From: a virus
IMG/VR virus record: IMGVR_UViG_3300019477_000133
Location: 6,076-70,075 of that record
Length of the DNA: 64,000 nt
Strand: one strand, 5' to 3'
Both the position numbers and the translations under genes were made by a program. Positions 18,918 through 61,153 of this stretch are shown here, in pieces. Under the pieces are notes generated by a model. The model was not told the DNA's origin. It did not search any database and saw only the letters and a program-made list of their open reading frames with translations. Positions within the stretch are counted from its first letter, which is position 1. The number at the start of each line of letters is the position of its first letter.

Positions 18918-19805
18918 ATGAAAAATTGGGAAAAAATTTTTAATACAATGGTATATTCTACCCTACAATATCTAAATGATTATGGAATTAATAATATGAT
19001 TTTAGGTATTTCTGGTGGTATAGATTCAACACTTGTAGCTGCTATTTGTCATGAAGTGGTAAAACGTTCTGATGGAAAAAAGAAGTTATTAGGATATTCT
19101 CTTATGTGTTCTACTAATCAATCAGATGAAGTAAAAGCAGCAGAAATGGTCGGTAAATCTTTATGCACGGAGTATCAGAGTATTAATTTGGAAGAAGATT
19201 ATAATACTATTTCAAGTAGTTTATCAAATCATTTCAAAGTAGATTCACCAATTGCTAATGGTAATATTAAAGCAAGATTGAGGATGCTATATCTTTATCA
19301 TTGTGCTTCAATTTATAATGGTATAGTTATGGACACTGATAACTATAGTGAACACCAACTTGGTTTTTGGACATTACATGGTGATGAGGGAGACTTTAAT
19401 CCTATTGGCGAATTATATAAGACCGAAATATATGAATTATGCGAATGGCTTTGTACTAAATATTACGTAAATGATAAAGATATCAGGCAAGCAATAGAAG
19501 AATCATATAAATTAACTCCTACAGATGGAAATGGTGTTAAGATGGGTGGTGACATGGCGCAGATTGCACCAGGACTAACTTATAAAGAAGTAGATAGAAT
19601 ACTTTTTGAAACTCAGATATGGGGTTGCCATAAGTATAATGACATCATTCTAAAAAGACTTTCTGAAGAGAAATGGTTTGATGAAGATATTGTCAAAGGC
19701 GTTATTAATAGAGTTAAAAATAGCGCATTTAAACGCAGACATCGTCCATTAAAAATTGATTTGGGGACAGGTGAAATAACACAGCAAATTTGTAAAGAAA
19801 AATAA
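18918..19805 (+). CDS. nadE: NH3-dependent NAD+ synthetase
   Basis: PP-loop LGISGGIDSTLVAAIC; NadE-specific NIKARLRMLYLY...MDTDNYSEHQLGFWTLHGDEGDFNPIG. Confidence 0.8.
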   Translation: MKNWEKIFNTMVYSTLQYLNDYGINNMILGISGGIDSTLVAAICHEVVKRSDGKKKLLGYSLMCSTNQSDEVKAAEMVGKSLCTEYQSINLEEDYNTISSSLSNHFKVDSPIANGNIKARLRMLYLYHCASIYNGIVMDTDNYSEHQLGFWTLHGDEGDFNPIGELYKTEIYELCEWLCTKYYVNDKDIRQAIEESYKLTPTDGNGVKMGGDMAQIAPGLTYKEVDRILFETQIWGCHKYNDIILKRLSEEKWFDEDIVKGVINRVKNSAFKRRHRPLKIDLGTGEITQQICKEK

Positions 19806-20074
19806 TGAATTTAGCACAAATTGAAGAAGTTTTTTCTGATAATAAAATTTCTGTAGGTAGTGTTAAAATAGCATTTTTAATAACTATAGGAGAGTATGTA
19901 CCATACACGCTTAAAATAGATGAAAATAATTTAGAATATTATTATTCTATTAACGTAGATGATATGACATATTCTCCACATATAGAAGAAATTATTAATC
20001 TGTTGAAAGATGACGGATGGGCATTAACAGAAGATAAAAAAGAATTAGTCAAATATATTGATTATACTTCTTAA
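19805..20074 (+). CDS. hypothetical protein
   Basis: 89-aa ORF. Confidence 0.35.
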   Translation: MNLAQIEEVFSDNKISVGSVKIAFLITIGEYVPYTLKIDENNLEYYYSINVDDMTYSPHIEEIINLLKDDGWALTEDKKELVKYIDYTS

Positions 20075-31594: not shown

Positions 31595-32422
31595 ATGAAG
31601 AAAATTGTTACGTTTATTGCTACTGCAATCTTTGCTGTAACAGCATTAACAAGCTGTTCATTTACAAACCCATCATACGATGAAGAAGTAGCTTTAAAGA
31701 TGAAGCCATGGTTTGTTGGTAGTACTGGTGTAGACCCTACCCCTGTTAATGACTTAACATGTATTGCATGGACAACATCAGCTGTGAGTTTCTATATTCT
31801 TCCTCAAAAGGTGGAGTTCAAATTCGATGACTTGCTTTCAAACGACAACACACCTTTGGATGTAAGCATGTATATGGTCTTGCAGGTTCAGAAAGGTCAT
31901 ACTCCTGAATTGTTACAAAACTATGGTGAAGACTGGTATAAGACATTCATTGAACCATATTTCAAGAATAAGGTACGTGAATACGTTTCTACATGTTCTC
32001 CATTTGATTTGATGAGTAATCGTGAAGTACTTATTCAACTTGACACTGAAATTGCTAAGTCAATGAGAATTTATATTCAGCAACTTTCAAAGACAAGAGG
32101 TAACTTCCCTGTTACTATTCAGCAGGTTACTACAGATAGGGTAATGCCTAACAAGGAACAACTTGATGAAATGAACAAGACAGCTGCTGCTATTCAAGCA
32201 AAGCAGACACAGGAGAAGAAAGCTGAAATGGAGTTAGCAAGAGCCAAAGCTGAAAAGAATAAGGCTATTGCAGATAAGGCTTATATGAACGAATTGGCAC
32301 TTTCTCCGCAGCAGTTTATTCAACTTCGTGTATGGGACGTTATCGCAAGTAAGCAGGGTGCTAATATTGATGTACTTGTTGGTTCTGGAGAAACTCCCAT
32401 GTGGAATATTAAACAGAAATGA
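31595..32422 (+). CDS. lipoprotein with a C-terminal coiled-coil (possibly SPFH/band-7-like)
   Basis: MKKIVTFIATAIFAVTALTSCSF lipobox. Confidence 0.5.
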   Translation: MKKIVTFIATAIFAVTALTSCSFTNPSYDEEVALKMKPWFVGSTGVDPTPVNDLTCIAWTTSAVSFYILPQKVEFKFDDLLSNDNTPLDVSMYMVLQVQKGHTPELLQNYGEDWYKTFIEPYFKNKVREYVSTCSPFDLMSNREVLIQLDTEIAKSMRIYIQQLSKTRGNFPVTIQQVTTDRVMPNKEQLDEMNKTAAAIQAKQTQEKKAEMELARAKAEKNKAIADKAYMNELALSPQQFIQLRVWDVIASKQGANIDVLVGSGETPMWNIKQK

Positions 32423-32716: not shown

Positions 32717-33859
32717 ATGTTAAGAGGGATTAAGATAAGATTATATCCAAACAATACACAAGAGCAGGTACTCAATAAGGTGCTTGGGTGTTACCGTTTT
32801 GTTTATAACCAAATGCTTGCTCGAAAACAGAATGCTTATAAAACAGATAAAACAAACTTATCTGTTACCGATTTATCAAAATGGTTTCATGGAACATTGT
32901 TAAAGGATGAACAATATGCTTGGCTGAAAGAACAGAACACGAAGGTGATGAAACAAGCAATCAGACAAATGGATGGTGCTTACCAAAACTTCTTCAAACA
33001 ACATAATGGTTTTCCAAAATTTAAAACAAAGAAGGATAAACAATCGGCATTATTCCCATATGAAGCCATTTCCAAAAAGAATACATTTGAAACCAAACAT
33101 ATCAGTTTGACAACCTCATTAAAGAATATTAAGTTCCGTTGTTCAGATTTGTATTTCAGAAGATTACAAAAGTATAATAAGAATATAAGAAGTGCTACCT
33201 TATCGAAGACCAAGAGTGGTAATTTCTTCTTATCTATCCTTGTTGAATTGGATGATACTGAATTAAAGAAATTTGAACATACAAACAAGCAAGTTGGTAT
33301 TGACCTTGGAGTCAAAGATTTTGTAATCACGTCTGATGGTGAGGTATTTGATAACAAACATTTTTTCAAAGAGAAAGAGAAAGAAGTAAGGATGCTTCAA
33401 AGACAATTGTCAAGAAAAGTTAAAGGTTCTAACAATTGGAATAAGCAACGTGTTAGAATTGCAAAAGCATTTGAAAGACTTACCAACCAAAAGGAAGCCT
33501 ATATACATAGTGTTGTGAATGAGTTATTAACTTATTATGACACTGTATTTATGGAAGACTTGAATGTGAAAGGAATGCTAAAAAATCATCATCTTGCCAA
33601 AGCTATACAAGAGGTTAGTTTCTATAAGTTCAAGGAAATATTGTTTAGCAAGTCACTTGTTAACGATAAAAGTGTTGTGTTTATTGAAAGATTCTATCCA
33701 TCAAGCAAGACTTGCTCACAATGCGGTTATAAGAAACGAGACTTGAAGTTAAGTGATAGATTTTGGATTTGCCCTGAATGTGGGACAAAACATGACAGAT
33801 ATGTTAATGCTGCCATAAACATATTGTTGGAAGGTCAACGAATACTGGCAGCGGTGTAA
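32717..33859 (+). CDS. tnpB: TnpB (OMEGA RNA-guided nuclease, IS200/IS605 OrfB family), catalytic motifs intact
   Basis: N-terminus IKIRLYPNNTQEQ; RuvC-I VGIDLGVKD; RuvC-II VFMEDLNVKGM; zinc finger CSQCG...CPECG; RuvC-III HDRYVNAAINIL. Confidence 0.85.
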   Translation: MLRGIKIRLYPNNTQEQVLNKVLGCYRFVYNQMLARKQNAYKTDKTNLSVTDLSKWFHGTLLKDEQYAWLKEQNTKVMKQAIRQMDGAYQNFFKQHNGFPKFKTKKDKQSALFPYEAISKKNTFETKHISLTTSLKNIKFRCSDLYFRRLQKYNKNIRSATLSKTKSGNFFLSILVELDDTELKKFEHTNKQVGIDLGVKDFVITSDGEVFDNKHFFKEKEKEVRMLQRQLSRKVKGSNNWNKQRVRIAKAFERLTNQKEAYIHSVVNELLTYYDTVFMEDLNVKGMLKNHHLAKAIQEVSFYKFKEILFSKSLVNDKSVVFIERFYPSSKTCSQCGYKKRDLKLSDRFWICPECGTKHDRYVNAAINILLEGQRILAAV

Positions 33860-34272: not shown

Positions 34273-34707
34273 ATGATAGTACAAGATTTAAAGATAGGTT
34301 ATACGGTTTGTACAGTGACAAGTTTTGGGAGACTAACTATGCCAATGTACATTGCAGGCATTCTTAATGATGGTACTATTTATCTTGACTTCGATAATAA
34401 CGAAGGAGATATGTGGGAAGTTGATATTAAAGATATTGCGCCTGTTAGAATAACGGAAGATATTTTAAGCGATTTCAGTTTTAAAAGAGAATTAAATACT
34501 GAAATGCCTACATATAAAATACCAGATAGTACTATTGAAAGCTATATAGTTGCTACAGATAATGAATGTACATCTTTCTGGTTGACGAATGCTTGTAATG
34601 GAGAATATACAGATAAAAGTATAGGTAATAAGACCTTCAAGTACATACACGAATTGCAGGAATTATTTTATCAAAAATTCAATAAACTTTTACTTATCAA
34701 TATATGA
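34273..34707 (+). CDS. hypothetical protein
   Basis: 144-aa ORF. Confidence 0.35.
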   Translation: MIVQDLKIGYTVCTVTSFGRLTMPMYIAGILNDGTIYLDFDNNEGDMWEVDIKDIAPVRITEDILSDFSFKRELNTEMPTYKIPDSTIESYIVATDNECTSFWLTNACNGEYTDKSIGNKTFKYIHELQELFYQKFNKLLLINI

Positions 34708-35348
34708 AACTACTTGGTTCACATAATAGTTTAAGTTATCTTAGACCTAAAAAATGGTATATGTATCCTTTCATTTTTACTGCTAAATGTCAGAAAGTGA
34801 ATTATAAGGAACAATATAAAAACTATAATATTAGAGTATTTGACCTTAGAGTATGGTTTGACAAGGATGGTAACTTAGAAGTACGACATGGTGCAATGGT
34901 ATATAACATTGACCTAAATGGTGTGTACGAGTTTTTACATTATCTTAATAGTAAGACAGATTCCTATGTAAGAATTATACTTGAAGAAGATAATTTGTCA
35001 AAGCGAGAGAAAAATTCCGCTTGGAAAGAAATACTATTTGAAAAGTTTTGCACTTCTATTGAGACTTTATTTACAAATGTTTATTTCTTTGGTGGAAGAA
35101 GAAAGTTTGATTGGTTGAGAATACATGATTTTAAACATGATGATATTCCTCTTTTAGACTTATATTCAAGTACTACAAGATTTTTTGGTAAAGCAATTTT
35201 TGAAAAAGGAATTAATATGATTCTGAATATGGCAGATGATTGGTATCCTTGGTTGTATGCAAAATTTCACAATAAGAAAAATTATCAGGAATATATAAAT
35301 AATGATAAAGAAGAATGTCTTATGTGTGACTTTATAAACATTAGATAG
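34704..35348 (+). CDS. PLC-like phosphodiesterase (PI-PLC X-domain-like), paralog of 12353-13303
   Basis: GSHNSLSYL and IRVFDLRVWFDKDGNLEVRHG motifs. Confidence 0.4.
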   Translation: MKLLGSHNSLSYLRPKKWYMYPFIFTAKCQKVNYKEQYKNYNIRVFDLRVWFDKDGNLEVRHGAMVYNIDLNGVYEFLHYLNSKTDSYVRIILEEDNLSKREKNSAWKEILFEKFCTSIETLFTNVYFFGGRRKFDWLRIHDFKHDDIPLLDLYSSTTRFFGKAIFEKGINMILNMADDWYPWLYAKFHNKKNYQEYINNDKEECLMCDFINIR

Positions 35349-36258: not shown

Positions 36259-37227
36259 TTAATCTTCAATTGGTTTGATTAAATCTTTGTATTGTTCCCA
36301 ACCATTAGTTGCATTTTTGTATGCATCTACAGAATCTCTTGGAACAAGTACTTCTTTAAATTGCCAGCCACGTTCTATCGTAGGTGGCTCTTTAGCTAAA
36401 ATAGTTAATGATAGGTTGCTTCTATTAGTAGAACGACTAATATATTTAATTGTTGCTGGTAATGTTAATGTTTCCAATGATGTACACATTGAAAATACAT
36501 CATTTTCAATCCTTTCTAAATTGGTCGGTATAATTACTTCGGATAAACTCGGACAATCTGAGAAGAGAAGTCTATTCAACGTTACAAGATTACTAGGAAG
36601 TATGACACGTCTTAATAAGTGGGAATGATAAAACACAGCATAACCTAAATCAGCATTTGAACCAGTTTCAAAAACTACTTCGGTCAATTTAGGACAATAT
36701 CCAAATGCTGTAGCTATTATTCTTTCTAATGTATTTGGAATAAAAACTGTTTGTATATTAGTTTTTTCAAAAGCTTGATTGTATATCGTTTTTACTGTTC
36801 TTGGTATTGTAAGCGACGATATTGATGTATTATACAACATTTTGTTACCGATTACATCTCCTGTAAAATGAGTCATATCAGCTTCAGTAATTAATTTACT
36901 ATTATTTCCTTGAAATACTGTTGTAAAAGTATAACGAAATTCACCATCACAATCTAAAATGTTCCACCCTTTTTGTAATAATACGTCTTCTTCTGAAACT
37001 TTTAAGATTTCATCAGATAACAATGGATTAATCTTAACACCATCACCATCAACATAAAGTCTTATATAGTTATTGAGAGATGGTTTATTATAACTTACCC
37101 CCCCCCCATTTAGTACATAACTGACATGTGGTTCAATGTAATCTGAAGAGTTTAAGAATACATCACTTACTGATTTTTCTGCAAATAATTTTAAATGTTT
37201 CATATATACAATTTTAGTTATTATCAT
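36259..37227 (-). CDS. BspA-type leucine-rich-repeat surface protein
   Basis: repeats IPNTLERIIATAFGYCPKLTEVVF / LPSNLVTLNRLLFSDCPSLSEVIIPTNLERIENDVFSMCTSLETLTLP; contains a G10 tract on the coding strand. Confidence 0.6.
   Translation of the reverse strand: MIITKIVYMKHLKLFAEKSVSDVFLNSSDYIEPHVSYVLNGGGVSYNKPSLNNYIRLYVDGDGVKINPLLSDEILKVSEEDVLLQKGWNILDCDGEFRYTFTTVFQGNNSKLITEADMTHFTGDVIGNKMLYNTSISSLTIPRTVKTIYNQAFEKTNIQTVFIPNTLERIIATAFGYCPKLTEVVFETGSNADLGYAVFYHSHLLRRVILPSNLVTLNRLLFSDCPSLSEVIIPTNLERIENDVFSMCTSLETLTLPATIKYISRSTNRSNLSLTILAKEPPTIERGWQFKEVLVPRDSVDAYKNATNGWEQYKDLIKPIED
37098..37107 (-). repeat. homopolymeric tract: C10 on the + strand, G10 on the coding strand, encoding GGG inside the LRR gene
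   Basis: read directly: ttaCCCCCCCCCCattt. Confidence 0.8.
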
Positions 37228-37441: not shown

Positions 37442-37741
37442 ATTGTTAGAAGTATTGTACCGAAAGGTAATCACAACTTGTGGGACATGGAGGAAAAACG
37501 ACCACTTATTGTTAGAAGTATTGTACCGAAAGGTAATCACAACTATGTCGCAGAACTATCAATTGAAACTGGAATTGTTAGAAGTATTGTACCGAAAGGT
37601 AATCACAACGGACAACAAGCAGATAACACACGTTATAAGATTGTTAGAAACTCTTTACCGCAAGGTAATCACAACGTAGGGCAAAAGACAATTAACGCCT
37701 TGAATGTTGTTAGAAATAATATACCGCAAGGTAATATAAAG
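37442..37741 (+). CRISPR. CRISPR mini-array 1: five 36-nt repeats (ATTGTTAGAAGTATTGTACCGAAAGGTAATCACAAC; the last two degenerate) and four 30-nt spacers; the repeat 3' end GGTAATCACAAC is Cas13b (VI-B)-like
   Basis: exact 66-nt periodicity, spacers all 30 nt and unrelated to each other; repeat hairpin TACC-GAAA-GGTA with a GNRA loop; repeats degrade toward the 3' end. Confidence 0.85.
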
Positions 37742-39168: not shown

Positions 39169-39459
39169 ATGAATAGATTCGATTTAAATTTATCAAAACA
39201 TGCCATTCAAGAGATACTTGATGCAAATGGATATGAGATTAAGACATTATTGGTATATTATAGTCCTTTCAGTGATGCATATGATTGGGACAATAGAACA
39301 TCTTTTAGTGTACAACGAGAATATGCTTTCAAGAAGAATAATATGCCAGAAGAAGCAGAGCGTGAAAAGCCAATTTTAGAAGATTTAAAAGAATATGAAT
39401 TGGATAACGTTTTGAATAAAATAATAACTGAATCAATAGTAAGAATATGTTTAAGTTAA
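39169..39459 (+). CDS. hypothetical protein
   Basis: 96-aa ORF after the promoter gtatctttgcaacat. Confidence 0.35.
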   Translation: MNRFDLNLSKHAIQEILDANGYEIKTLLVYYSPFSDAYDWDNRTSFSVQREYAFKKNNMPEEAEREKPILEDLKEYELDNVLNKIITESIVRICLS

Positions 39460-39977
39460 TTGTTTGTACAAATTTGGTTGGTGCCATTGGAAAAGATAAT
39501 AAATTACTTTACCATATTAAAAATGATATGGATAATTTCAAGCGTTTTACCGATGGTAATACTGTGATTATGGGTATGAATACCTATTTGTCTTTACCTA
39601 ACCAGAAACCACTTAAGAATAGAACTAATATTGTTCTTACATCAAATCCTAAATTATGTACTGAGAAATTTGGTAATACAAGTGTCCACTTTGTAAACTC
39701 AATTAATGGTGCTCTCACGTTAATGCGTCATCTTAACATAAAGGATGAAGATGTATTTGTAATTGGAGGTTCTTCTATATATAATGCATTCTTGGATGAG
39801 AATCTTATCAGTGAAGCATATGTTACTGTTGTTGAAGATAAGACAGAAGGAGATGCTTATTTCCCTTTAAAAGAATTTTCTAAAAATAAGTGGAAGAAAA
39901 TTTATGAATCTTCACCTCAAGCAGACCAAGATTTAGTTTTTAAATTTTTAATTTATAAAAACATCGGTAATGAATAA
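39447..39977 (+). CDS. folA: dihydrofolate reductase
   Basis: LIVCTNLVGAIGKDNKLLYHIKNDMDNFKRFTDGNTVIMGMNTY...NRTNIVLTS matches the DHFR N-terminal signature. Confidence 0.75.
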   Translation: MFKLIVCTNLVGAIGKDNKLLYHIKNDMDNFKRFTDGNTVIMGMNTYLSLPNQKPLKNRTNIVLTSNPKLCTEKFGNTSVHFVNSINGALTLMRHLNIKDEDVFVIGGSSIYNAFLDENLISEAYVTVVEDKTEGDAYFPLKEFSKNKWKKIYESSPQADQDLVFKFLIYKNIGNE

Positions 39978-42059: not shown

Positions 42060-42824
42060 ATGAGTGCAAACGGAAGTAAATTCTTTACCGCTATGGTCAT
42101 TGGAGAGGAACCTGATAAGTTGATGAAGAAATATGATAAATCCTTAAAAGTTGAACCATACGTTAAATACAAGTATCTTGATGCAAAAAAGATGCAGAGT
42201 GCAACTATTAAATCTATCGAAGCAATTTTGTCAGACCCAAAGAAATTTGGACTCAGCCAGTTTAGTATTGATATGCTGACTGAAAGAAAGAAGATTATAA
42301 ATAATATGACATCTTTCGAGTATTACCAAAGTGTTACAGATGGCATGTTTTATGACGGAGAAGGTAATGCGTTATGTGAAGATAATCCAAACGGAAAATG
42401 GGATAATTGCTCATTAGGTAAGAATTTTGCTGTACCAATTATTACAAAAGACGGCAAAGAGGTCTATCAAGCAAGAAACAAGGATATTGACTGGGACTCA
42501 GTAATGACACGTGATGAGTCGTTATATAATGCTACATGGGAAATGATAGTAGAAGGGCGTGACCCAGAAACTCCAGAGGAAACTTCTATATATCATGCAA
42601 TGAATGATAAACAGGAATATTTTTCCAACTTTAAGAATAAAGAAGATTACGTAACTTATTCTTGTTCTTATTGGAATTATGCTTATTTAGATGAGAATGG
42701 ATGGAAAGATATTGATGATACAGGAAAAGAACAAGAATGGATTAAAAAGTTTTATAATAACTTTATAAAACAACTTAAACCAGACGCTCTTATCAGTATA
42801 TACGAATATAGTAGAAGAAATTAA
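42060..42824 (+). CDS. hypothetical protein
   Basis: 254-aa ORF. Confidence 0.5.
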   Translation: MSANGSKFFTAMVIGEEPDKLMKKYDKSLKVEPYVKYKYLDAKKMQSATIKSIEAILSDPKKFGLSQFSIDMLTERKKIINNMTSFEYYQSVTDGMFYDGEGNALCEDNPNGKWDNCSLGKNFAVPIITKDGKEVYQARNKDIDWDSVMTRDESLYNATWEMIVEGRDPETPEETSIYHAMNDKQEYFSNFKNKEDYVTYSCSYWNYAYLDENGWKDIDDTGKEQEWIKKFYNNFIKQLKPDALISIYEYSRRN

Positions 42825-42900
42825 CATATATTAATATGAAATCCTTGATGAAATAAATTATTTTTATTACCTTTGCAACATAACTTTTAAATACATAAAA

Positions 42901-43881
42901 ATGGAAGATTTAGTTACAAAGCAACTTAGGAAACGTTTCCTCAAGGATTTTAATCTACCTATCCAAGTAATACAAGACCCTTACTTTACAGAGCGTCTTG
43001 AACTATGCGGTGCTACTCAAGATTATAATAATCTTCTTGAATACATCGACACCAATTATAGTGGTAGTTATAGAGCATTCTTAGATGCTTATGCACAAAT
43101 AAGAGATGAAATTGTTACTTCATGTTACAACTCAGAAGCGTTTAAACTGTTCAACAACAGTGACATTAAAGGTGAAAATCCATTGATTCCACAACGGAAC
43201 TTGTATACTGAAGAACAAGATGGAAATAGTTTTGTAAGCGTTGATTTAAAGAAAGCAAACTTTCAAGCACTTAAATATGTTAATTCCGAAATAGTCCTTA
43301 ATACTGATACATATGAAGGATTTATAGGAAAGTTCACGGATAGTGAATATATTAAGAAGTCAAAATATACAAGACAAGTTATCTTTGGAAAACTTAATCC
43401 GAAAAAGACAATTAGTATAGAGAAACGTATTATTAATAAAATTTATAAGACGCTTAATGATAAGTTCAATCTGACTGAATATTTAGAACCATATTCTATG
43501 TGTACAGATGAAATTATCTACAAAGTGAAAGATAACAATAATAACGTATTGACAGATTTGCTGTGTGATAAATCTTTAATGATGATGGAACAAATTATTA
43601 AAGACACACTCGGGTTTGAAGTACGCATTAATTATTTCGGTCTTAAGTTACATCAATTCAAGCTTGCTACATCGGAAGCAAAAGTCAATTCTTTCACTAA
43701 ATTGAATCATGTAACAAATGAGGTGTCTTATGCGTGTATTCCATCTACATACTATCCACAGATTTACAAATTAATTAATGGTTTAGATGTAACTAAGAAT
43801 GACCTTGTTTTTTATTATGAACATGAGTTGGCGACATTCTTAAACCCATTGGTAAAATTAAATAAAGATAATGAAATTTAA
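42901..43881 (+). CDS. hypothetical protein
   Basis: 326-aa ORF after the promoter acctttgcaacat. Confidence 0.5.
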   Translation: MEDLVTKQLRKRFLKDFNLPIQVIQDPYFTERLELCGATQDYNNLLEYIDTNYSGSYRAFLDAYAQIRDEIVTSCYNSEAFKLFNNSDIKGENPLIPQRNLYTEEQDGNSFVSVDLKKANFQALKYVNSEIVLNTDTYEGFIGKFTDSEYIKKSKYTRQVIFGKLNPKKTISIEKRIINKIYKTLNDKFNLTEYLEPYSMCTDEIIYKVKDNNNNVLTDLLCDKSLMMMEQIIKDTLGFEVRINYFGLKLHQFKLATSEAKVNSFTKLNHVTNEVSYACIPSTYYPQIYKLINGLDVTKNDLVFYYEHELATFLNPLVKLNKDNEI

Positions 43882-45172
43882 AATCAAAGATAAAAAGATA
43901 GAAAAAACCATCCATACAATACGTGCACTTATCAAAGGAACCAAATTTGAAGGTGTTACGTATGTTGTAGGTGGTTTTGTACGTGATACGTTAATGGGAG
44001 AAGTATCTAATGATTTAGACATTGTTGTTAATCTCCCGTCTGGTGGAATAGATTTAGCGAATACTTTAACAGAGTTGGATAATAGTCATAGTGACTCTAA
44101 TCCTATTGTATATCCTAAGTATGGTACCGCAAGCTTTCATTTAAAGAATAATGATGAATATTCTGATGTTGTTATTGAGTCTGTGGAAACACGGAAAGAA
44201 CAATATCATTCAGAATCACGTAATCCAGAAACATGTTTTGGAACTTTAGAAGAAGATGCATTTAGAAGAGACCTTACAATTAACGCATTGTATTACAATA
44301 TCTCAACAGATAAAGTAGAAGATGTTACTGGAAAAGGACTTGATGATTTGAAAAATCATGTTATCAGAACTACAAATGATAACCCTAACATAGTTTTCTT
44401 TGATGACCCATTGCGTATAATGAGAGTTATCAGATTTGCAAATAGATATGGCTGGAATATAGAAGAGAAGACGTGGAAATCATTGCAAGAATGTGCTTCA
44501 AGAATAAAGATTATTTCTAAAGAAAGAATACGTAATGAGTTGAATAAGATAATTGCCAATAAAGACTGTATAAATGGTTTGAATTATTTAAAAGATAGTG
44601 GTATTTTATCTTATATTCTTCCCGAACTATTTGAACAATGTTTTGTTCCATGTTCACAGGACTTTAATAGTATGTTTGATAAAATAGTTACAATATGTAG
44701 TCAAGCACCTATATGTTTATATACTCGTCTTTCAATTCTATTATCATTTTGCAAAACAGATAGCGCATGTGAAACTATTCTATCTCATCAAAAGCAACCG
44801 AATGTAATAATAAAGCATGTGCAGAATGCACTGTTAGGTAAAAACTTCAGAAGAGAAGACGAAGAATTAGAAGTATCTTTACGTAGATTATATAAGAAAT
44901 GTAACCAAAATATAGATAATGCATTATGGGTGTATCGAGTTTTTACAGATGAAGAAACTTATAACGAAACGGTAAATACGTGGCTAAAGATAAAAGATAG
45001 TGCTAAAATTTATCTTCCGATAGATGGAAATGAAATCTTCTCATATCGTGCAGATATTACAAATAATGACAGAAAATTATTAATTGATTATCTACACGAA
45101 GAACAATGCAAAAATCCTTTCTTAACAAAAGAAGAATGTGTTGAATTAATTAAACAATATCAGTTACATTAA
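43871..45172 (+). CDS. cca: tRNA nucleotidyltransferase (CCA-adding enzyme) / poly(A) polymerase family
   Basis: head-domain motif YVVGGFVRDTLMG...NDLDIVV (GGxVRD ... DxD); FRRDLTINALYY matches motif RRDxTINA. Confidence 0.7.
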   Translation: MKFKIKDKKIEKTIHTIRALIKGTKFEGVTYVVGGFVRDTLMGEVSNDLDIVVNLPSGGIDLANTLTELDNSHSDSNPIVYPKYGTASFHLKNNDEYSDVVIESVETRKEQYHSESRNPETCFGTLEEDAFRRDLTINALYYNISTDKVEDVTGKGLDDLKNHVIRTTNDNPNIVFFDDPLRIMRVIRFANRYGWNIEEKTWKSLQECASRIKIISKERIRNELNKIIANKDCINGLNYLKDSGILSYILPELFEQCFVPCSQDFNSMFDKIVTICSQAPICLYTRLSILLSFCKTDSACETILSHQKQPNVIIKHVQNALLGKNFRREDEELEVSLRRLYKKCNQNIDNALWVYRVFTDEETYNETVNTWLKIKDSAKIYLPIDGNEIFSYRADITNNDRKLLIDYLHEEQCKNPFLTKEECVELIKQYQLH

Positions 45173-45180
45173 AAAAATAA

Positions 45181-45747
45181 ATGAATATGAATAAATTACT
45201 ATTGATTGTTGACCCACAATACGATTTCATTAATGGAACGTTGCCTGTGGATAAAGCTGAACAGAAGATGAATGCTTTGTGTGAATACATTAAGAAACAC
45301 AATGACTACAAGACTATAGTTATTACAGCAGACTGGCACCCAGAGAGCCATTGCTCTTTTAAAGAAAATGGTGGAGAGTGGCCTAAACACTGTATCGCCT
45401 ATACACATGGTGCTGCCATTTATGAACCAATTATTCAAATTCTAAGAGATTTAAAAATAAATTATAAAGTTCTTACTAAAGGAACGGACTCTAAAGAAGA
45501 AGAATATTCTGTTTTTCTTAATGATGAGTCATATGATTGGTTGACTAAAACAGTAGCTAAAGAAAATATTGACCAGATTGATATCTGTGGTATTGCTGGA
45601 GATGTTTGTGTACATGATACATTAGTAAGTGGTATAAATGAGTTTGGAAACGAGAAATTTAATATACTTATGGATTACTGCCCATGTATAAATGATGATT
45701 TTTTACTTAAATCTCTTAATGTAAATAAAACTTATGGCAAGAATTGA
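45181..45747 (+). CDS. pncA: nicotinamidase / isochorismatase-family hydrolase
   Basis: LLLIVDPQYDFINGTLPV N-terminus plus a conserved Lys/Cys context (ITADWHP...H, GIAGDVCV). Confidence 0.6.
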   Translation: MNMNKLLLIVDPQYDFINGTLPVDKAEQKMNALCEYIKKHNDYKTIVITADWHPESHCSFKENGGEWPKHCIAYTHGAAIYEPIIQILRDLKINYKVLTKGTDSKEEEYSVFLNDESYDWLTKTVAKENIDQIDICGIAGDVCVHDTLVSGINEFGNEKFNILMDYCPCINDDFLLKSLNVNKTYGKN

Positions 45748-45955
45748 AATGGAATATGATGAGTATGAACGATTAGAAAAAAGTGTGAAAGTACTTCAAG
45801 ATAACGTTTATACATTACAGAACGAAATCAATGAGAAAAATAACTTAATTGACAGTTATAAAGAAACTCTTAAAGATATTAAAGAAAGTACACTTATTGA
45901 TAGAGTTCTAAATTGGAAAGATTATTTGAATGATATTAATGAGTTAAACAATTAA
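45734..45955 (+). CDS. hypothetical small coiled-coil protein
   Basis: 73-aa ORF. Confidence 0.3.
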   Translation: MARIEMEYDEYERLEKSVKVLQDNVYTLQNEINEKNNLIDSYKETLKDIKESTLIDRVLNWKDYLNDINELNN

Positions 45956-45967
45956 AATTAAACAAAA

Positions 45968-47149
45968 ATGATTAAATCAATTTTAGATACAGATTTGTAT
46001 AAATTCAGTACTTCATATGCTTATTTTCATAAGTTTAATAGAGCGGAGGGAACATTTAAGTTTAACGACAGAAACAAAGAAGATTGGAGAAACTATCCAA
46101 ACTTTATGGATGAGATTGAGATACAAATTGAAAACTTATCCAATATTCGTCTTACAAATGAAGAAAGAGATTGGTGTGTTGAGAACATTGATTATATACC
46201 AGAGAATTATTGGGAATGGCTAAGTACTTTTCGTTTCAAACCAGAACTTATTAAGATGTGGCTGGATGACGATGGTGTCTTCCAGTGTGAGGTGACGGAT
46301 AAACTCTATCGTGTGACATTATATGAGATAGCTATTCTTGCCACATATGCCGAAGTAAGAAATCGAGTATTAGGAAATAAGATTAACATGGAGAAAACTA
46401 TGTTAAAATTAGAAGATAAGATTTCTTATGCTAATATGAATAGCCTCTGTTTTTCTGAATTTGGAACACGTAGACGATATAGTTTTAATGTACAAAATGA
46501 AGTCGTTAAACGACTAAAAGAAAAGTGCCCTGTATGTGCTGGAACAAGTAATGTGTATTTGGCAAAGAAACACCACATGCGACCTACTGGTACATTCCCT
46601 CACGAATGGATGATGTTTCATGCTGCTGTGTATGGATATAAGCGTGCGAACTACATGGGGCTTGAGGACTGGATTGATGTATATGAAGGTAATCTTGGTA
46701 CTGCGCTAATTGATACATATACTACTGAGTCGTTTCTTAGAACCTTAACCTTGCAGCAAGCTTTGCTTTTGAGAGGTTTCCGCCAAGATAGTGGTGATGA
46801 GTTTAAGATTGGTAATATGATTATTAAACGTTTACAAGAATTAGGAATCGACCCTAAGACTAAATTGCTTATCTTCTCAAATGCCCTTACATTTGAAAAG
46901 TATAAAGAAATTCATGATTACTTTAATGGACGTATTATGGTCTCAGCTGGAGTTGGCACAAATCTAACTTGTGATACAGATATCAAAGATTACAAACCAG
47001 CAAATATTGTCATGAAATTATCAAGAGCGAGATATAGTAGTAAAGACCCTTGGGAAAAGTGTATCAAAATTAGTGATGATATAGGCAAACACATGGGAGA
47101 TGCTAAGGAATTTGATAAAGCCATGAGTGATTTGCATTTGTCTGAATAA
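45968..47149 (+). CDS. pncB: nicotinate phosphoribosyltransferase
   Basis: N-terminus ILDTDLYKFSTSYAYFHKF matches the NAPRTase signature (LDTDxYKxxM). Confidence 0.7.
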   Translation: MIKSILDTDLYKFSTSYAYFHKFNRAEGTFKFNDRNKEDWRNYPNFMDEIEIQIENLSNIRLTNEERDWCVENIDYIPENYWEWLSTFRFKPELIKMWLDDDGVFQCEVTDKLYRVTLYEIAILATYAEVRNRVLGNKINMEKTMLKLEDKISYANMNSLCFSEFGTRRRYSFNVQNEVVKRLKEKCPVCAGTSNVYLAKKHHMRPTGTFPHEWMMFHAAVYGYKRANYMGLEDWIDVYEGNLGTALIDTYTTESFLRTLTLQQALLLRGFRQDSGDEFKIGNMIIKRLQELGIDPKTKLLIFSNALTFEKYKEIHDYFNGRIMVSAGVGTNLTCDTDIKDYKPANIVMKLSRARYSSKDPWEKCIKISDDIGKHMGDAKEFDKAMSDLHLSE

Positions 47150-47211
47150 TTTGGCATAGATATTGTAATAATGAAAGTAAAAAATAATTTATTAATAAAA
47201 TATATAAAGTT

Positions 47212-47754
47212 ATGAGATTAGAAGATTTAATTTTTACGACTCCAAAAAATCTTGAAGATGTATTTAAAAGTGTTTGGGAAATGGATAAAAAGAAAGATTT
47301 ACATAAAGGTGTAAAGAGTGCTTGTGAAACAGGTTTCGATAAAACCTGTGGAGGCATTGGCTCATTATTGGGTTTGAAGAAAAAGTGGAATGAAGATGAT
47401 ACCACATATTCTGTTTGTGTGAATTATAATAAGGAAACTGACCTTATTAGCCATAAGTACACAAACGATACTTTAACTATAAATGTAAGTTCAAAAGATG
47501 ATACAGATAGTTCTTCTTACATGCTTTCTATCCCTGAAGATGCACGTAATTCCAAACTTCTCTATGAATATCTTGAAGATAGGAAAAAGATGAAGTTTAC
47601 TATTACAAAGGATGTTAATACAAAACGTAAGCAAGAGTATGAAAAGACAATGCAGGATTATCGTCAGAAACTCAAAGAAGTTGAAGAACTTAAGAAGAAG
47701 GAAACTGAGTTGAACGAGTTGCGAAAGAAGTTGTCTGAGTTCAATCAAAAGTAA
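47212..47754 (+). CDS. hypothetical protein with a C-terminal coiled-coil
   Basis: 180-aa ORF. Confidence 0.4.
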   Translation: MRLEDLIFTTPKNLEDVFKSVWEMDKKKDLHKGVKSACETGFDKTCGGIGSLLGLKKKWNEDDTTYSVCVNYNKETDLISHKYTNDTLTINVSSKDDTDSSSYMLSIPEDARNSKLLYEYLEDRKKMKFTITKDVNTKRKQEYEKTMQDYRQKLKEVEELKKKETELNELRKKLSEFNQK

Positions 47755-47790
47755 TATATGATTCACCATATAAATGGAAATTTATAATAT

Positions 47791-48009
47791 GTGCCGTAAA
47801 GTCCACAAGTATTTAGATTGTGGAATGTAAGACACTATCGGCAGGGACTGTCGATTACACGGGTGGAGAGGGGGTAAGAGCCGACCTTTTGGAAAGCCAT
47901 TCCTCGGTGAATCCCGAAGCCTATGAACATTTAACTCATGGGTAGTCCACGAACCATTACATTAAATAATGTTAAAAACGGAGCTATAATTTGGTAGTTC
48001 CGTTTTTTT
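47791..48009 (+). ncRNA. candidate small structured RNA, copy 2: element A fused directly to the conserved core (47829-47863), a divergent 3' part, and an intrinsic terminator (47976-48009)
   Basis: shares A and core with 3688-3846; terminator hairpin aacggagct...agttccgtt plus a T7 run. Confidence 0.45.
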
Positions 48010-48162
48010 ATTGTATCTTTGTAGTGTAAAATTAATATTAAATCAATAAAGAAATGGAAAAAGAAGAATACGTTTTTGAATCAACCATTATTAGTCTATC
48101 TAATAATGATACAGAAACAGTTAGTACAACAAATGGATTTAAAGAATATTACTATTAGTGTT

Positions 48163-48534
48163 ATGGATAAGTTTAAATTAGTTTTTATTGGCATGATAAC
48201 TTTATTAACTTTAGCTTCATGCACTTCAGATTATTATTACGATGATTATTACCACGATATTCCAACACCTGAAATAATGATAGGAAAGTGGGTTAATCAA
48301 GATTATACATCGCCATACAAAGAGATATACCTATATCGTAATGGTACATACAATGTTAGATATCATTCAAACATTTTAACCACAACATTTACTGGACGGT
48401 GGTATTACAGAGATAGGTACTTATATTTTGCAGGAGAAATCAAAGATAAATTATACATATATTCTTTAGAATACCCACATATATATTTCTCAAACGGTTC
48501 TGTTTGGAGAAAGATAAGAGTTGAAGGGTGTTAG
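48163..48534 (+). CDS. small lipoprotein (start adjusted to the internal Met MDKFKLVFIGMITLLTLASC)
   Basis: lipobox LASCTSD; first of three tandem small lipoproteins. Confidence 0.45.
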   Translation: MDKFKLVFIGMITLLTLASCTSDYYYDDYYHDIPTPEIMIGKWVNQDYTSPYKEIYLYRNGTYNVRYHSNILTTTFTGRWYYRDRYLYFAGEIKDKLYIYSLEYPHIYFSNGSVWRKIRVEGC

Positions 48535-49818: not shown

Positions 49819-50249
49819 TACTGTTAGAAACGTTAAACCGCAAGGTAATCACAACGTCAATCATGGTAATGAATTGGCAATAAACACTGTTAGAAACGTT
49901 AAACCGCAAGGTAATCACAACTGTAACGTAATTGTCTGAAATATTTGTATTACTGTTAGAAACGTTAAACCGCAAGGTAATCACAACAGCACTACCAATT
50001 ATTATTTGATTTTTTTACTGTTAGAAACGTTAAACCGCAAGGTAATCACAACAGTCATTTACTAATTCAAATACTTCAATCGACTGTTAGAAACGTTAAA
50101 CCGCAAGGTAATCACAACGGCGTGGCAAGTGTTAAGGCAGCGTCTGAGACTGTTAGTAACCATTTACCGAAAGGTAATCACAACAATTATGACATTGCAA
50201 GGGAAGTAATGAAGACTGTTAGTAATATTAAACCGAAAGGTAATTCAAA
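49819..50249 (+). CRISPR. CRISPR mini-array 2: seven 36-nt repeats (ACTGTTAGAAACGTTAAACCGCAAGGTAATCACAAC; the last two degenerate) and six spacers of 29-30 nt
   Basis: five identical repeats then two decayed repeats; hairpin AACC-GCAA-GGTA; followed by hairpin ggggt...acccc. Confidence 0.85.
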
Positions 50250-50301
50250 GGGGTTTAATTCGACCCCTATATAAAATAAAGAAATTAAACATATTATATT
50301 T

Positions 50302-56736: not shown

Positions 56737-57102
56737 ACTGTTAGAAGTATTATACCGCAAGGTAATCACAAGAAATCAATTGACGATATAATGAGAATTG
56801 ACACTGTTAGAAGTATTATACCGCAAGGTAATCACAACATGCACGAACATTTCAAAGGTTTTAATTACGTTGTTAGTAATCCTTTACCGCAAGGTAATCA
56901 CAACGAACACCCTGCACACTATTGAAGAGAACGAGTTATTAGTAATACTATACTGAAAGGTAATCACAACTACAATTGGTCATACCTCAGACGTGCAGCA
57001 ACTGTTAGCAATACTGTACCGCAAGGTAATTACAATGAGATAATCGTGGACCATTATACACGTGCTGATTTTAGTAATACCTTACCGAAAGGCAACTACA
57101 AT
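56737..57102 (+). CRISPR. CRISPR mini-array 3: six 36-nt repeats (ACTGTTAGAAGTATTATACCGCAAGGTAATCACAAC, progressively degenerate) and five 30-nt spacers
   Basis: exact 66-nt periodicity; spacers unrelated to each other; repeats decay toward the 3' end. Confidence 0.85.
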
Positions 57103-59005: not shown

Positions 59006-61153
59006 ATGCGTACTTTACTAATTCTTAGAGGTTGTATGGGCAGTGGTAAGTCTACTTTCATTAAGGAAAATGGTCTTACTGATTACACATTGTCAGCCGA
59101 TGATATACGTTTAATGTTTCATTCTCCAAAGATGAATGAAGAGGGCGATATGACTATTAGCGCACGTTCCGATAAAATGGTATGGGATACATTGCATACT
59201 ATGCTTGAGAACCGTATGCGTAATGGTGATTTCACTGTTATTGATGCTACACATAAGACATCTAAGGCTGTATCTAAGTATGTAGAATTAGCTGACAAGT
59301 ATCGCTATAATTGTTATCAGCATAATGTCGAGGCAACCTTGGATGAATGTTTGGAACGTAATTTGTTACGTGACCCAGTAAGACGTGTTCCAGACATTGA
59401 TATTCGTCGTGCATACAATATGCTTCAAGAAAATAAGTTGTCTAATCGTTTCAAGGAAGTTAATGATGTAGATGACATTCTCAATTATTACATTACCGAT
59501 GCTTCTGCATACAAGGAAGTAAAGATTATAGGTGATGTACATGGTTGTCACACATGCCTTTTAGAAGCTATTGGTGGCTCTTTAAACCCAGACGTGTTAT
59601 ATGTATTCGTTGGTGATTATTTCGACCGTGGTATCGAAAATAAAGAAGTGTATGAGTTCCTATTGTCACATTATAATGATGACAACGTGGTCCTTCTTGA
59701 AGGAAATCACGAGAAGCATATCTGGCGTTTGATTAACGGTGAGGAGATAACTTCAGAATACTTCAAGATGACACTTGATGAGATAACCAAGGTTTATCCA
59801 TTGGAACAGGTTCGTAAGGAGTTAAAGAAAATTTACTATCGTATGCGTCAGTGTTTTGCATTCACATACCGTGGTAAGAAATACTTGGTAACACATGGTG
59901 GACTTACATCTGTTCCAAATCTTACAACTATTCCAACAAACGACATGATTAAGGGTGTTGGGGGATATGATATGGAAGTAGATAAGATATATGAAGATAA
60001 TTATTTGCTTGGGAAGTGTCAGGACTTTATACAAGTACATGGTCATCGCAATACTCTTTCTACCGAACATTCAATTTGTCTTGAAGATTGTGTTGAATTT
60101 GGCGGTAACTTAAAGGTTTTCTCTATAACACCAGAATATGCTTCTATATTAAAATACGAAAATAAAGTGTTTAGTATAGATAATATGAATGCTTTTCAGC
60201 AAGTAGTATATAAGGTTGATGACCCAGAAGTTAAGAAGATAATGAATAGTCGTCTTGTTAATGTAAAGGGTTGTAAGCATAACATGTACTCTATCAACTT
60301 TAATCGTAATGCATTTATTGGAAAGAAATGGAACTTTGCTACTATCAAGGCACGTGGTTTATTTGTTGATAAGAATACAGGAGAAGTAAAGATGCGTTCT
60401 TATGATAAGTTCTTTAATATTGATGAACATAAGACAACTAAGAGAAATAAACTTGAAGAAACTCTTAAGTTCCCAGTAAAAGTAACGATAAAGGAGAATG
60501 GATATCTTGGAATTATGTCAGTAGTAGACAATCAGTTAGTATTTGCTTCCAAAACAACTGACAGTGGTCCTTTTGCTGAACGTTTTGAACGTATTTTTAA
60601 CGAAACTGTTAGTAAGCACGATAAAGACCTATTGAAGAATATCCTGAAGAAAGAGAATGCTTCGGCTGTGTTTGAAGTGATTAGTCCTACAGAAGACCCA
60701 CATATTATTAGATATGAAAAGGAAGAAGTGGTATTGCTGGACATTATCCATAATGTGCTTAACCTTGGTGAAAACTATACAGAAGAGTCAGATAAGTTCA
60801 AGAATTTCTTAAGAGAAAATACATCTTTGAGAATGCCAGACGAATTAGTTATTAATACTAATGATGAGTTATGGGAATACCTACGGACTAATATAGGAAC
60901 TAATGATTCCGTAGAAGGTGTTGTAGTCACAGATGCTACTGGATTCAAGTTTAAAGTAAAGTTCAATTACTATCTAATGGTGAAGAACCTTAGACGTATT
61001 ACTCAGATATTCAGAAAGTGTAAGCGTGATGGTACGCCATTTAACGAAAAAATATGTCGTAATGATATGGAAAAGAATTTCGTTAATTTCCTTGAAAAAG
61101 AAGATGATGGAGAAATGAGTATCATTGATTTATATGATAAATTTCAAAAATAA
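59006..61153 (+). CDS. pnkP: polynucleotide kinase-phosphatase with a C-terminal nucleotidyltransferase (ligase-like) domain (bacterial Pnkp-like RNA repair enzyme)
   Basis: P-loop LILRGCMGSGKSTF; calcineurin-like phosphoesterase motifs GDVHGC / GDYFDRG / GNHE; ligase motif I-like KVTIKENGYLG. Confidence 0.65.
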   Translation: MRTLLILRGCMGSGKSTFIKENGLTDYTLSADDIRLMFHSPKMNEEGDMTISARSDKMVWDTLHTMLENRMRNGDFTVIDATHKTSKAVSKYVELADKYRYNCYQHNVEATLDECLERNLLRDPVRRVPDIDIRRAYNMLQENKLSNRFKEVNDVDDILNYYITDASAYKEVKIIGDVHGCHTCLLEAIGGSLNPDVLYVFVGDYFDRGIENKEVYEFLLSHYNDDNVVLLEGNHEKHIWRLINGEEITSEYFKMTLDEITKVYPLEQVRKELKKIYYRMRQCFAFTYRGKKYLVTHGGLTSVPNLTTIPTNDMIKGVGGYDMEVDKIYEDNYLLGKCQDFIQVHGHRNTLSTEHSICLEDCVEFGGNLKVFSITPEYASILKYENKVFSIDNMNAFQQVVYKVDDPEVKKIMNSRLVNVKGCKHNMYSINFNRNAFIGKKWNFATIKARGLFVDKNTGEVKMRSYDKFFNIDEHKTTKRNKLEETLKFPVKVTIKENGYLGIMSVVDNQLVFASKTTDSGPFAERFERIFNETVSKHDKDLLKNILKKENASAVFEVISPTEDPHIIRYEKEEVVLLDIIHNVLNLGENYTEESDKFKNFLRENTSLRMPDELVINTNDELWEYLRTNIGTNDSVEGVVVTDATGFKFKVKFNYYLMVKNLRRITQIFRKCKRDGTPFNEKICRNDMEKNFVNFLEKEDDGEMSIIDLYDKFQK

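Follow-up and report, generated by a model that had tools for sequence, protein, structure and literature searches.

A predicted deamidating NAD+ salvage gene set with a conserved Nudix hydrolase in a probable Bacteroidota jumbo phage, and its possible role in counter-defence

Five NAD+-related genes in a 64-kb phage sequence

The IMG/VR virus record IMGVR_UViG_3300019477_000133 contains the 64-kb stretch analysed here (positions 6,076 to 70,075 of the record; hereafter the window), which has ~31% GC (0.31) and carries nearly all of its genes on the plus strand. Its subject of interest is a set of genes for rebuilding nicotinamide adenine dinucleotide (NAD+) from nicotinamide. A first-pass annotation of this DNA had proposed that the nicotinamidase PncA, the nicotinate phosphoribosyltransferase (NAPRTase) PncB, the adenylyltransferase NadD and the synthetase NadE form a complete salvage route in a phage, one that could counteract NAD+-depleting host defences. 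The open reading frames (ORFs) of these enzymes and of an accompanying Nudix hydrolase lie exactly where that annotation had placed them, and the motifs it quoted (GSFDPIHIGH, SGGIDS and NIKARLRM) are all present. The hidden Markov model searches it had recommended were run, and PF00857, PF04095/PF17767, PF01467 and PF02540 each matched the expected ORF. All four enzyme assignments stand, since the Pfam and NCBIfam matches and the best solved-structure relatives are the expected enzymes. With PncA, PncB, NadD and NadE all encoded, no step from nicotinamide to NAD+ is missing on paper. The products named below are nicotinate mononucleotide (NaMN) and nicotinate adenine dinucleotide (NaAD); PncB also uses phosphoribosyl pyrophosphate (PRPP).

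18918..19805, plus strand: NadE, predicted single-domain NH3-dependent NAD+ synthetase (NaAD + NH3 + ATP to NAD+), 295 aa
35352..35915, plus strand: NadD, predicted nicotinate-mononucleotide adenylyltransferase (NaMN + ATP to NaAD), 187 aa
38113..38727, plus strand: Nudix hydrolase, predicted ADP-ribose (ADPR) pyrophosphatase (ADPR to AMP + ribose-5-phosphate), 204 aa, PF00293
45181..45747, plus strand: PncA, predicted nicotinamidase (nicotinamide + H2O to nicotinate + NH3), 188 aa
45734..45955, plus strand: orf73, small 73-aa ORF between PncA and PncB, probably coiled-coil
45968..47149, plus strand: PncB, predicted NAPRTase (nicotinate + PRPP (+ATP) to NaMN), 393 aa

The four salvage enzymes

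PncA has the isochorismatase fold (PF00857, 38.1 bits against a cut-off of 27). Its best NCBIfam model was the nicotinamidase/pyrazinamidase PRK11609, which at 69.3 bits fell below the 174-bit equivalog cut-off; the protein is divergent from this E. coli-type model. Among solved structures, the best match was the P. horikoshii nicotinamidase (1IM5, E = 1e-23), and the top seven were nicotinamidases or their relatives. Four divergent phage copies were aligned: that of the window, a 71%-identical allele and two 43%-identical proteins from other jumbo contigs. Invariant in all of them were the catalytic D11, K100 and C143 as well as the metal-binding D51, H53, H57 and H70 (DxHxxxH...WPxHC). They align with D8/K96/C138 and D49/H51/H57/H71 of M. 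tuberculosis PncA. The intact metal site, which is specific to nicotinamidases, ruled out membership in another isochorismatase subfamily. A second possible start, in frame at 45187, would yield the 186-aa product that public gene callers report. Across ~12 close relatives, the ratio of nonsynonymous to synonymous substitution (dN/dS) of PncA was 0.11-0.34.

Among otherwise near-identical phages, PncA occurs in two allele classes (comparison of the window with L004, L008, L012 and L014). Identity is 94-98% in one class and ~71% in the other (dS ~0.55), whereas that of the neighbouring PncB remains 97-98%. Every catalytic residue is retained in both classes, and the split looks like the recombinational replacement of a single gene.

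PncB contains both NAPRTase domains (PF04095 and PF17767) and passed TIGR01514 (369.3 bits against a cut-off of 269.55) and PRK05321 (398 against 379). Its best PDB match, aligned over the full length, was the NAPRTase 2IM5 (E = 1.5e-95), and the Nampt family phrog_448 gave 41 bits only. Twelve phage homologues all retain the PRPP-binding FGTRRR165-170 segment and H212 of ‘PHEW’; the latter presumably corresponds to the histidine that is autophosphorylated in Salmonella PncB. With dN/dS values of 0.03-0.04 where dS was 0.24-0.5, the gene is under purifying selection. The first-pass annotation would have been refuted by a PncA-like ORF from another subfamily and a PncB-like ORF outside the NAPRTase models; we found an intact metal site in the one and a passed TIGR01514 in the other.

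In the window, PncA and PncB form part of a tightly packed string in the order CCA enzyme-PncA-orf73-PncB-orf180. The intervening orf73 overlaps the PncA stop by 14 nt and is kept only in close relatives (92-99% identity, dN/dS 0.13-0.5); its Pfam matches were all sub-threshold, and neither of the two compact clusters inspected (L088 and L106, described below) showed it. Downstream of PncB lies orf180 (47212-47754, 180 aa), which matched no family and whose C-terminus is charged and coiled-coil-like. Its position is conserved in close relatives and its sequence evolves fast (72-99% identity, dN/dS 0.3-0.5); a terminator-like hairpin (47974-48007) follows it, with no further gene in between. 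A sigma-70 promoter scan of 42800-48200 returned fewer sites than shuffled sequences and was uninformative, as expected for a Bacteroidota-type system.

NadD matched PF01467 and scored 103 bits with TIGR00482, narrowly under the cut-off of 112.45. Its top 17 PDB matches were all NadD, led by 1KAM (E = 4.5e-19), and both nucleotidyltransferase motifs, H14-I-G-H17 and ISSTYIRR153-160, are intact; dN/dS was 0.14-0.45. A PI-PLC-X-like ORF (34704-35348, 214 aa; weak X-domain match, 26 bits against a cut-off of 23) ends 3 nt ahead of the NadD start and could be co-translated with it.

In NadE, PF02540 spans residues 11-274, TIGR00552 was passed (146.2 bits against 63.65) and the PP-loop S32GGIDS37 is invariant. 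The Pfam search returned no CN-hydrolase (glutaminase) domain, the only other match being a weak Asn_synthase hit at residues 31-94. Consistent with an ammonia-dependent enzyme, the best PDB matches were NH3-dependent NadE proteins, led by 1XNG (E = 6e-23). The fourth of these matches, 3FIU, is presumably the Francisella enzyme, and we take the Francisella type to be a nicotinamide mononucleotide (NMN) synthetase. It is therefore a possibility that the phage protein is an NMN synthetase of this type, which would bear on the order of amidation and adenylylation. NadE dN/dS was ~0.1; a value of 0.85 for L020 was discarded as an artefact of a gapped alignment.

The structure and family matches of the four enzymes are far beyond chance. 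All four genes are under purifying selection, with dN/dS well below 1 among the ~12 close relatives, whose contigs reach 312 kb. They are ~45-55% identical to cellular copies, and their GC content (0.30-0.35) matches that of the window (0.31), which argues for long residence and against recent passengers. On these sequence grounds, the encoded enzymes are very probably active.

A Nudix hydrolase of the ADP-ribose type

The Nudix box of the fifth protein, G60x5E66x7R74E75xxE78E79xG81, is intact: G60, E66, R74, E75, E78 and E79 are invariant and G81 nearly so, and one U position of the consensus (GX5EX7REUXEEXGU) is occupied by Thr. P98 stands 16 residues past the box, at a position that we take to be a marker of ADPR pyrophosphatases. 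With a ten-member family profile, the top four PDB matches were 2FML, 3GZ8, 3GZ5 and 2QJT (E = 4e-11 to 2e-8), and NCBIfam assigned NtrR to 7/10 members and NadM-Nudix to 6/10. The 2QJT entry is deposited as a nicotinamide-nucleotide adenylyltransferase, with the Nudix match in its C-terminal part, and is presumably the Francisella NadM-Nudix protein. 2FML is the E. faecalis NrtR (PMC2330246), 3GZ5 has the same sequence as 3GZ6, in which Shewanella NrtR is complexed with DNA (PMC6800001), and 3GZ8 likewise is NrtR. Nudix domains of the NrtR type bind ADPR. They resemble ADPR pyrophosphatases most closely, and those whose signature is intact catalyse this hydrolysis; the reaction can yield ribose-5-phosphate for PRPP synthesis, as proposed for bacterial NAD metabolism (PMC2330246). 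The phage protein comes without the winged helix-turn-helix (wHTH) DNA-binding domain of NrtR.

Given the NrtR and NadM-Nudix relatives and the conserved catalytic box, ADPR pyrophosphatase is the best-supported assignment, and we consider it probable, with a reserve that reflects the modest E-values. Alternative substrates would be NADH, NAD-capped RNA or cyclic ADPR signals.

A five-gene unit in other large viral contigs

Profile scans of IMG/VR identified 196 viral loci with NadE and 350 with PncB; most of their contigs measured 90-435 kb. Gene clusters were counted by tblastn (E <= 1e-6) in the 80 best loci of each scan, so that the counts are samples and not a census. In the PncB-anchored sample, PncA, PncB, NadE, NadD and Nudix occurred together in 47/68 distant viral loci, 40 times in the order PncA-PncB-NadE-NadD-Nudix and in compact, co-directional form. 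The NadE-anchored sample gave all five genes inside 3.9-7.6 kb in 25/72 distant viral loci, and in L088 successive module genes overlap start to stop codon. NadD homologues in the compact clusters (34-44% identity) lie between NadE and Nudix, and the Nudix homologues (31-51% identical to the window protein) lie directly beside NadD, PncA or PncB.

The recurrence of homologues in compact clusters of other large viral contigs indicates that the four window genes are a real functional unit, and the presence of Nudix in these clusters marks it as a conserved fifth member of the module. The first-pass annotation had counted the Nudix gene, together with a dihydrofolate reductase (DHFR) gene, towards the nucleotide-metabolism load of the phage; the former instead belongs to the module, and the latter (39447-39977) is unrelated to it. 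In the window the module is spread over 28 kb, with NadE at 18.9, NadD at 35.3, Nudix at 38.1 and PncA-orf73-PncB at 45.2 kb, and these genes are a dispersed version of the conserved operon-like unit.

Additional genes accompany the compact clusters (L088 9304-9996, 11817-12356, 6696-7391 and 13170-13679; L106 11482-11910). They include a 230-aa P-loop ATPase between PncB and NadE and, between NadD and Nudix, a TIR/SLOG-like ORF of 142-179 aa with a sub-threshold TIR_2 match (25 bits against 28). A metallophosphoesterase gene flanks the clusters upstream and a HAD_SAK_2 gene downstream. A BLAST-detectable counterpart in the window was found for none of the P-loop ATPase, the TIR/SLOG-like ORF, the metallophosphoesterase, HAD_SAK_2 and a dNMP kinase. 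In one distant jumbo-phage relative, L037 (ENA ERZ27239185 k141_981009, 403 kb), the ORF directly after NadE (10902-11216) matched PF25189, ‘Type II Thoeris inhibitor Tad8’, with 40 bits (cut-off, 27). The gene for an NAD-dependent DNA ligase is located 5 kb upstream of it, and PncB, NadD and a HAD_SAK_2 gene lie <=7 kb downstream. A literature search on Tad8 returned nothing relevant.

Source phage and likely host

That the element is a phage, as first annotated, is borne out by the genes in the window, which encode a tail fibre bearing an S74 chaperone domain, a prohead protease of the ClpP type and RNA-ligase families of phages. A GH108 lysin, a single-stranded DNA-binding protein (SSB), a sigma factor and 16 tRNA genes (between 8547 and 34138) are also present. 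IMG/VR relatives with 97-98% identity reside on contigs of 210,853, 222,463 and 312,238 bp. The ends of the largest of these carry NadE on one side and NadD together with PncB on the other, spaced as the window predicts; because the module wraps around the contig ends, a circularly permuted complete genome is suggested. Contigs of 301-322 kb encode NadE proteins that are nearly identical. Judged from these relatives, the window derives from a jumbo phage of ~312 kb.

The host probably belongs to the Bacteroidota. NadE shares 47-48% identity with its counterparts in Prevotella and Muribaculaceae, start codons appear to lack Shine-Dalgarno sequences, and the window contains repeats of the Cas13b type, which in a genome scan were confined to Bacteroidota (see below). 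The best structure match of PncB, 2IM5, is presumably from Porphyromonas gingivalis, and we count it toward the same assignment. A blastn search of GenBank phages with the PncA-PncB region returned a single weak fragment and no close isolate. A PncB relative is encoded in 13/50,697 GenBank phage records, namely those of human faecal phages, the LR7565xx huge phages, Agrobacterium phage Atu_ph07 and Sinorhizobium phage Phosso.

Proposed route from nicotinamide to NAD+ and its purpose

In the route that we propose, PncA would convert nicotinamide to nicotinate and NH3, PncB would combine nicotinate with PRPP to give NaMN, NadD would adenylylate NaMN with ATP to NaAD, and NadE would amidate NaAD to NAD+ at the expense of ATP, using the free NH3 just released by PncA. 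The Nudix hydrolase would meanwhile split ADPR into AMP and ribose-5-phosphate, from which the host PRPP synthetase (Prs) could form the PRPP needed by PncB. The five proteins would rebuild NAD+ from nicotinamide and ADPR, at a cost in ATP, most likely so that it stays available during infection despite cleavage, above all by TIR, SIR2 or SEFIR NADases of host defences. The substrate specificities, the supply of PRPP through the host, the re-use of ammonia and the counter-defence purpose are what we infer here.

Nicotinamide and ADPR are the products of TIR, SIR2 and SEFIR effectors (Osterman et al.). The gene set looks like more than generic salvage because PncA and Nudix would act on both molecules that NADase effectors release, and because an NH3-dependent NadE can use the ammonia from PncA. 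Among the phage NAD+ reconstitution pathways (NARPs), NARP2, which likewise consists of classical salvage enzymes, abolishes Thoeris and DSR2 defence (Osterman et al. 2024). The genomic context offers two further observations: NadE of L037 adjoins the Tad8 gene, and the window is rich in candidate conflict or repair genes (a kinase-phosphatase-RNA-ligase, a CCA enzyme, the 16 tRNAs and CRISPR arrays, detailed below).

Such a purpose would make the gene set a functional analogue of NARP2 that runs through deamidated intermediates. The full proposal, a complete deamidating salvage pathway plus an ADPR-type Nudix in a Bacteroidota jumbo phage serving mainly counter-defence, seems to us evenly poised. 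Counter-defence as the primary selective purpose, taken on its own, would be plausible and a shade short of an even call. More tentatively, the five genes may constitute a fourth widespread phage NAD+ reconstitution pathway (‘NARP4’) that recycles both products of immune NADases.

Relation to known NAD+ pathways

The novelty of the gene set had been overstated in the first-pass annotation, as Bacteroidota jumbo phages with complete Preiss-Handler pathways, and the counter-defence proposal itself, were already published in 2024 (PMC11662467). In that study in Microbiome, complete salvage or Preiss-Handler pathways were reported in 174/668 animal-gut jumbo phages and in a further 181 phages from human and environmental sets; the hosts were Bacteroidota, and the genes included a pncB-nadD-nadE cluster, for example in Kuafu_71 of the Kuafu clade (PMC11662467). 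Counter-defence against NAD+ depletion was proposed there from bioinformatics only and was explicitly called untested (PMC11662467).

The phage studied here has in common with these ‘NAD-jumbo phages’ the jumbo genome, the likely Bacteroidota host and phage-borne pncB, nadD and nadE. It encodes the complete pathway of that class (PncB, NadD and NadE, plus PncA), and a genome larger than 200 kb is indicated by the contigs of its relatives, the window alone covering only 64 kb. The published pathway, however, starts at nicotinate, with pncA appearing in the discussion only and Nudix never mentioned (PMC11662467), whereas here PncA and the ADPR-type Nudix are conserved members, the five-gene cluster being present in 47/68 loci. 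A further difference is that the genes are clustered there and dispersed in the window. Taken alone, the window is ordinary, one more NAD-jumbo phage, and would not surprise a specialist.

The statement that the composition differs from described Nampt- and Adps-based pathways held up: Adps+Namat, Nampt+Nmnat and PnuC+NadR families were not found among the window ORFs, and by its gene content the system belongs to no named NARP. NARP2 of Vibrio phage KVP40 (Nampt/NadV and Nmnat/NatV) is likewise a phage-encoded classical salvage pathway from nicotinamide and PRPP; it comprises two amidated steps, from nicotinamide to NMN to NAD+, and is proven against Thoeris and DSR2 (Osterman et al. 2024). 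The window route would instead take four deamidated steps, from nicotinamide to nicotinate, NaMN, NaAD and NAD+, with predicted enzymes that are unrelated or only distantly related to those of NARP2. KVP40 NatV presumably carries an ADPR-pyrophosphatase Nudix domain, which would parallel the window Nudix.

NARP1 (Adps and Namat) likewise makes NAD+ from both cleavage products, ADPR and nicotinamide, but uses ADPR directly through ADPR pyrophosphate (ADPR-PP), whereas the window route would degrade ADPR to ribose-5-phosphate for re-activation by host Prs. NARP3 (PnuC and NadR) is also phage-encoded and restores NAD+ with parts of classical bacterial salvage; it imports nicotinamide riboside (Sci Adv 2026, PMC13464706), whereas the window encodes no transporter and no NadR, and its route would start from a different precursor. 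Enzyme families and chemistry are shared with bacterial Preiss-Handler salvage and with the NrtR/NadM-Nudix clade of ADPR pyrophosphatases, from which the window system differs in that its genes are viral and its Nudix lacks the NrtR wHTH. A description of the five-gene unit, of a ‘NARP4’ or of an experimental test of phage Preiss-Handler counter-defence was not found in the literature.

Other genes and CRISPR arrays in the window

The genes that figure below as neighbours or as candidates for RNA repair, and those of host-envelope or other types, are as follows.

17205-18857: DUF7788/DUF2828 ‘RNA-binding’ protein upstream of NadE (phrog_850, 195 bits)
21278-22483: TelA (224 bits), host-envelope or stress-type
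24712-25764: OmpA-domain lipoprotein-like protein, host-envelope or stress-type
31595-32422: SPFH/band-7 protein, host-envelope or stress-type
32717-33859: TnpB-type gene (OrfB_IS605, Cas12f1-like TNB domain, HTH) among the tRNA genes
36259-37227, minus strand: BspA-type leucine-rich-repeat protein, host-envelope or stress-type, among the few minus-strand genes
37442-37741, plus strand: CRISPR array, 5 repeats
43871-45172: CCA-adding/poly(A)-polymerase-family enzyme directly upstream of PncA
49820-50250, plus strand: CRISPR array, 7 repeats
56737-57036, plus strand: CRISPR array, 5 repeats
59006-61153: kinase-phosphatase-RNA-ligase (Pnkp/Rnl-like) protein (full-length phrog_8238, 630 bits)

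The CCA enzyme, the Pnkp/Rnl-like protein, the DUF7788/DUF2828 protein and the 16 tRNA genes make up an RNA-repair and translation set. The DUF7788/DUF2828 families are, we assume, TROVE/Ro60-like. No tnpA was noted beside the TnpB-type gene.

The three CRISPR arrays comprise 17 repeats (36 nt) and 14 spacers (29-30 nt), with a degenerate last repeat in each array. Their repeats share TTGTTA...GAAAGGTAATCACAAC with type VI-B (Cas13b) repeats. When genomes were scanned for the motif GGTAATCACAAC at a 65-67-nt period, only ten loci were recovered, all of them in Bacteroidota; these loci adjoin Cas13b-sized ORFs, and the one in Bergeyella zoohelcum lies beside Cas13b (PDB 6AAY). In phages that are ~97% identical, the syntenic arrays differ in copy number, repeat variant and almost all spacers, which points to array turnover. 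A cas gene was not found in the window, nor was a Cas13b relative found in IMG/VR with a four-sequence profile of low sensitivity. Searches for protospacers in the window and the loci, in GenBank phages and, with two of the spacers, in IMG/VR found none, and Rfam gave no match on the CRISPR side. The arrays may be orphans that use a host Cas13b, or RNA decoys, and they may be a more unusual feature of the window than the NAD+ gene set.

Alternative explanations

Several points weigh against counter-defence as the purpose of the gene set. Compared with NARP1 or NARP2, the route is longer and more expensive in ATP, and since PRPP is consumed, NAD+ would be made whether or not a defence fires, as in NARP2; such defence-independent synthesis fits metabolic boosting equally well. 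A PRPP synthetase was not found among the window ORFs, the genes are dispersed in the window phage, and the sigma-70 scan of 42800-48200 revealed no shared regulatory signal. PncA and NadD score under the NCBIfam equivalog cut-offs, and sequence cannot give the substrates of NadD (NaMN or NMN), NadE (NaAD or NaMN) and Nudix. Tad8 was not found in the window, where the ORF after NadE (19805-20074) is dissimilar and tblastn gave noise only, and to our knowledge the effector of type II Thoeris, the system that Tad8 targets, is not an NADase. NAD-dependent ligases near the module in relatives, finally, fit simple provisioning.

Under such general metabolic provisioning, the phage would raise the NAD(H) pool for a long jumbo-phage infection, in support of NAD-dependent DNA ligase, redox enzymes and nucleotide synthesis, or would offset host shut-off or missing salvage, and host defences would be irrelevant. 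An NAD-dependent ligase is carried by 90/174 NAD-jumbo phages, and phage and host pathways are often complementary (PMC11662467); LigA is encoded 6-7 kb from NadE in L037 and L070; NARP2 raises NAD+ in defence-free cells too (Osterman et al. 2024); and housekeeping-like genes are common in jumbo phages, as illustrated here by DHFR, SSB, the sigma factor and the tRNAs. However, NAD+ consumption by ligase yields NMN and not nicotinamide (established biochemistry), so that entry through a nicotinamidase, with an ADPR-type Nudix, appears tailored to the products of N-glycosidic cleavage. Moreover, an NAD-dependent ligase or dehydrogenase was not found in the window, and the Tad8 association in L037 also argues against provisioning, which we regard as a serious though less likely explanation. 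Considerably less probable is recycling after NAD consumers of the phage itself, for example ADP-ribosyltransferases, proteins of the sirtuin or macro type, or a Tpt1-type RNA 2'-phosphotransferase serving RNA repair, in which PncA would also clear nicotinamide, an inhibitor of such enzymes. Its genomic signs are a CCA enzyme followed by PncA in the window, L015, L016 and L118, RNA ligases between PncA and PncB in L015 and L016, the metallophosphoesterase and HAD_SAK_2 genes that flank compact clusters (HAD_SAK_2 adjoins NadD in L037) and the Pnkp/Rnl gene of the window. Yet ADP-ribosyltransferase, sirtuin, macro and Tpt1 families were not detected among window ORFs of at least 60 aa, and adjacency to RNA-repair genes may simply mirror a common accessory-gene island. 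That the genes are mis-annotated or decaying host passengers (isochorismatase, cytidylyltransferase or PP-loop paralogues, or inactive remnants) would accord with the sub-cut-off NCBIfam scores of PncA and NadD and with the scattering of the genes in the window phage; this explanation is already largely refuted by intact catalytic and metal-binding residues, dN/dS well below 1 for four genes, one conserved five-gene cluster in dozens of other viral contigs and a gene GC (0.30-0.35 against 0.31) indicative of long residence, and we consider it very improbable.

Implications

Bacterial antiviral immunity commonly ends in NAD+ depletion, and three phage pathways that rebuild NAD+ are experimentally proven. 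The deamidating route is the remaining classical branch of salvage and has been noted in giant gut phages by annotation only. What is new here is that PncA-PncB-NadE-NadD-Nudix is recognised as the module, that it is widely conserved in large viral contigs (350 IMG/VR loci carry PncB) and that it is dispersed in the window lineage; to the published picture this adds a nicotinamidase at the head of the unit and a link to a Nudix of the ADP-ribose type. The module provides a concrete, clonable candidate for testing whether it serves Bacteroidota phages against NADase defences. If the counter-defence proposal is true, large phages of Bacteroidota would have a means of escaping Thoeris, SIR2 or SEFIR-type NAD+ depletion.

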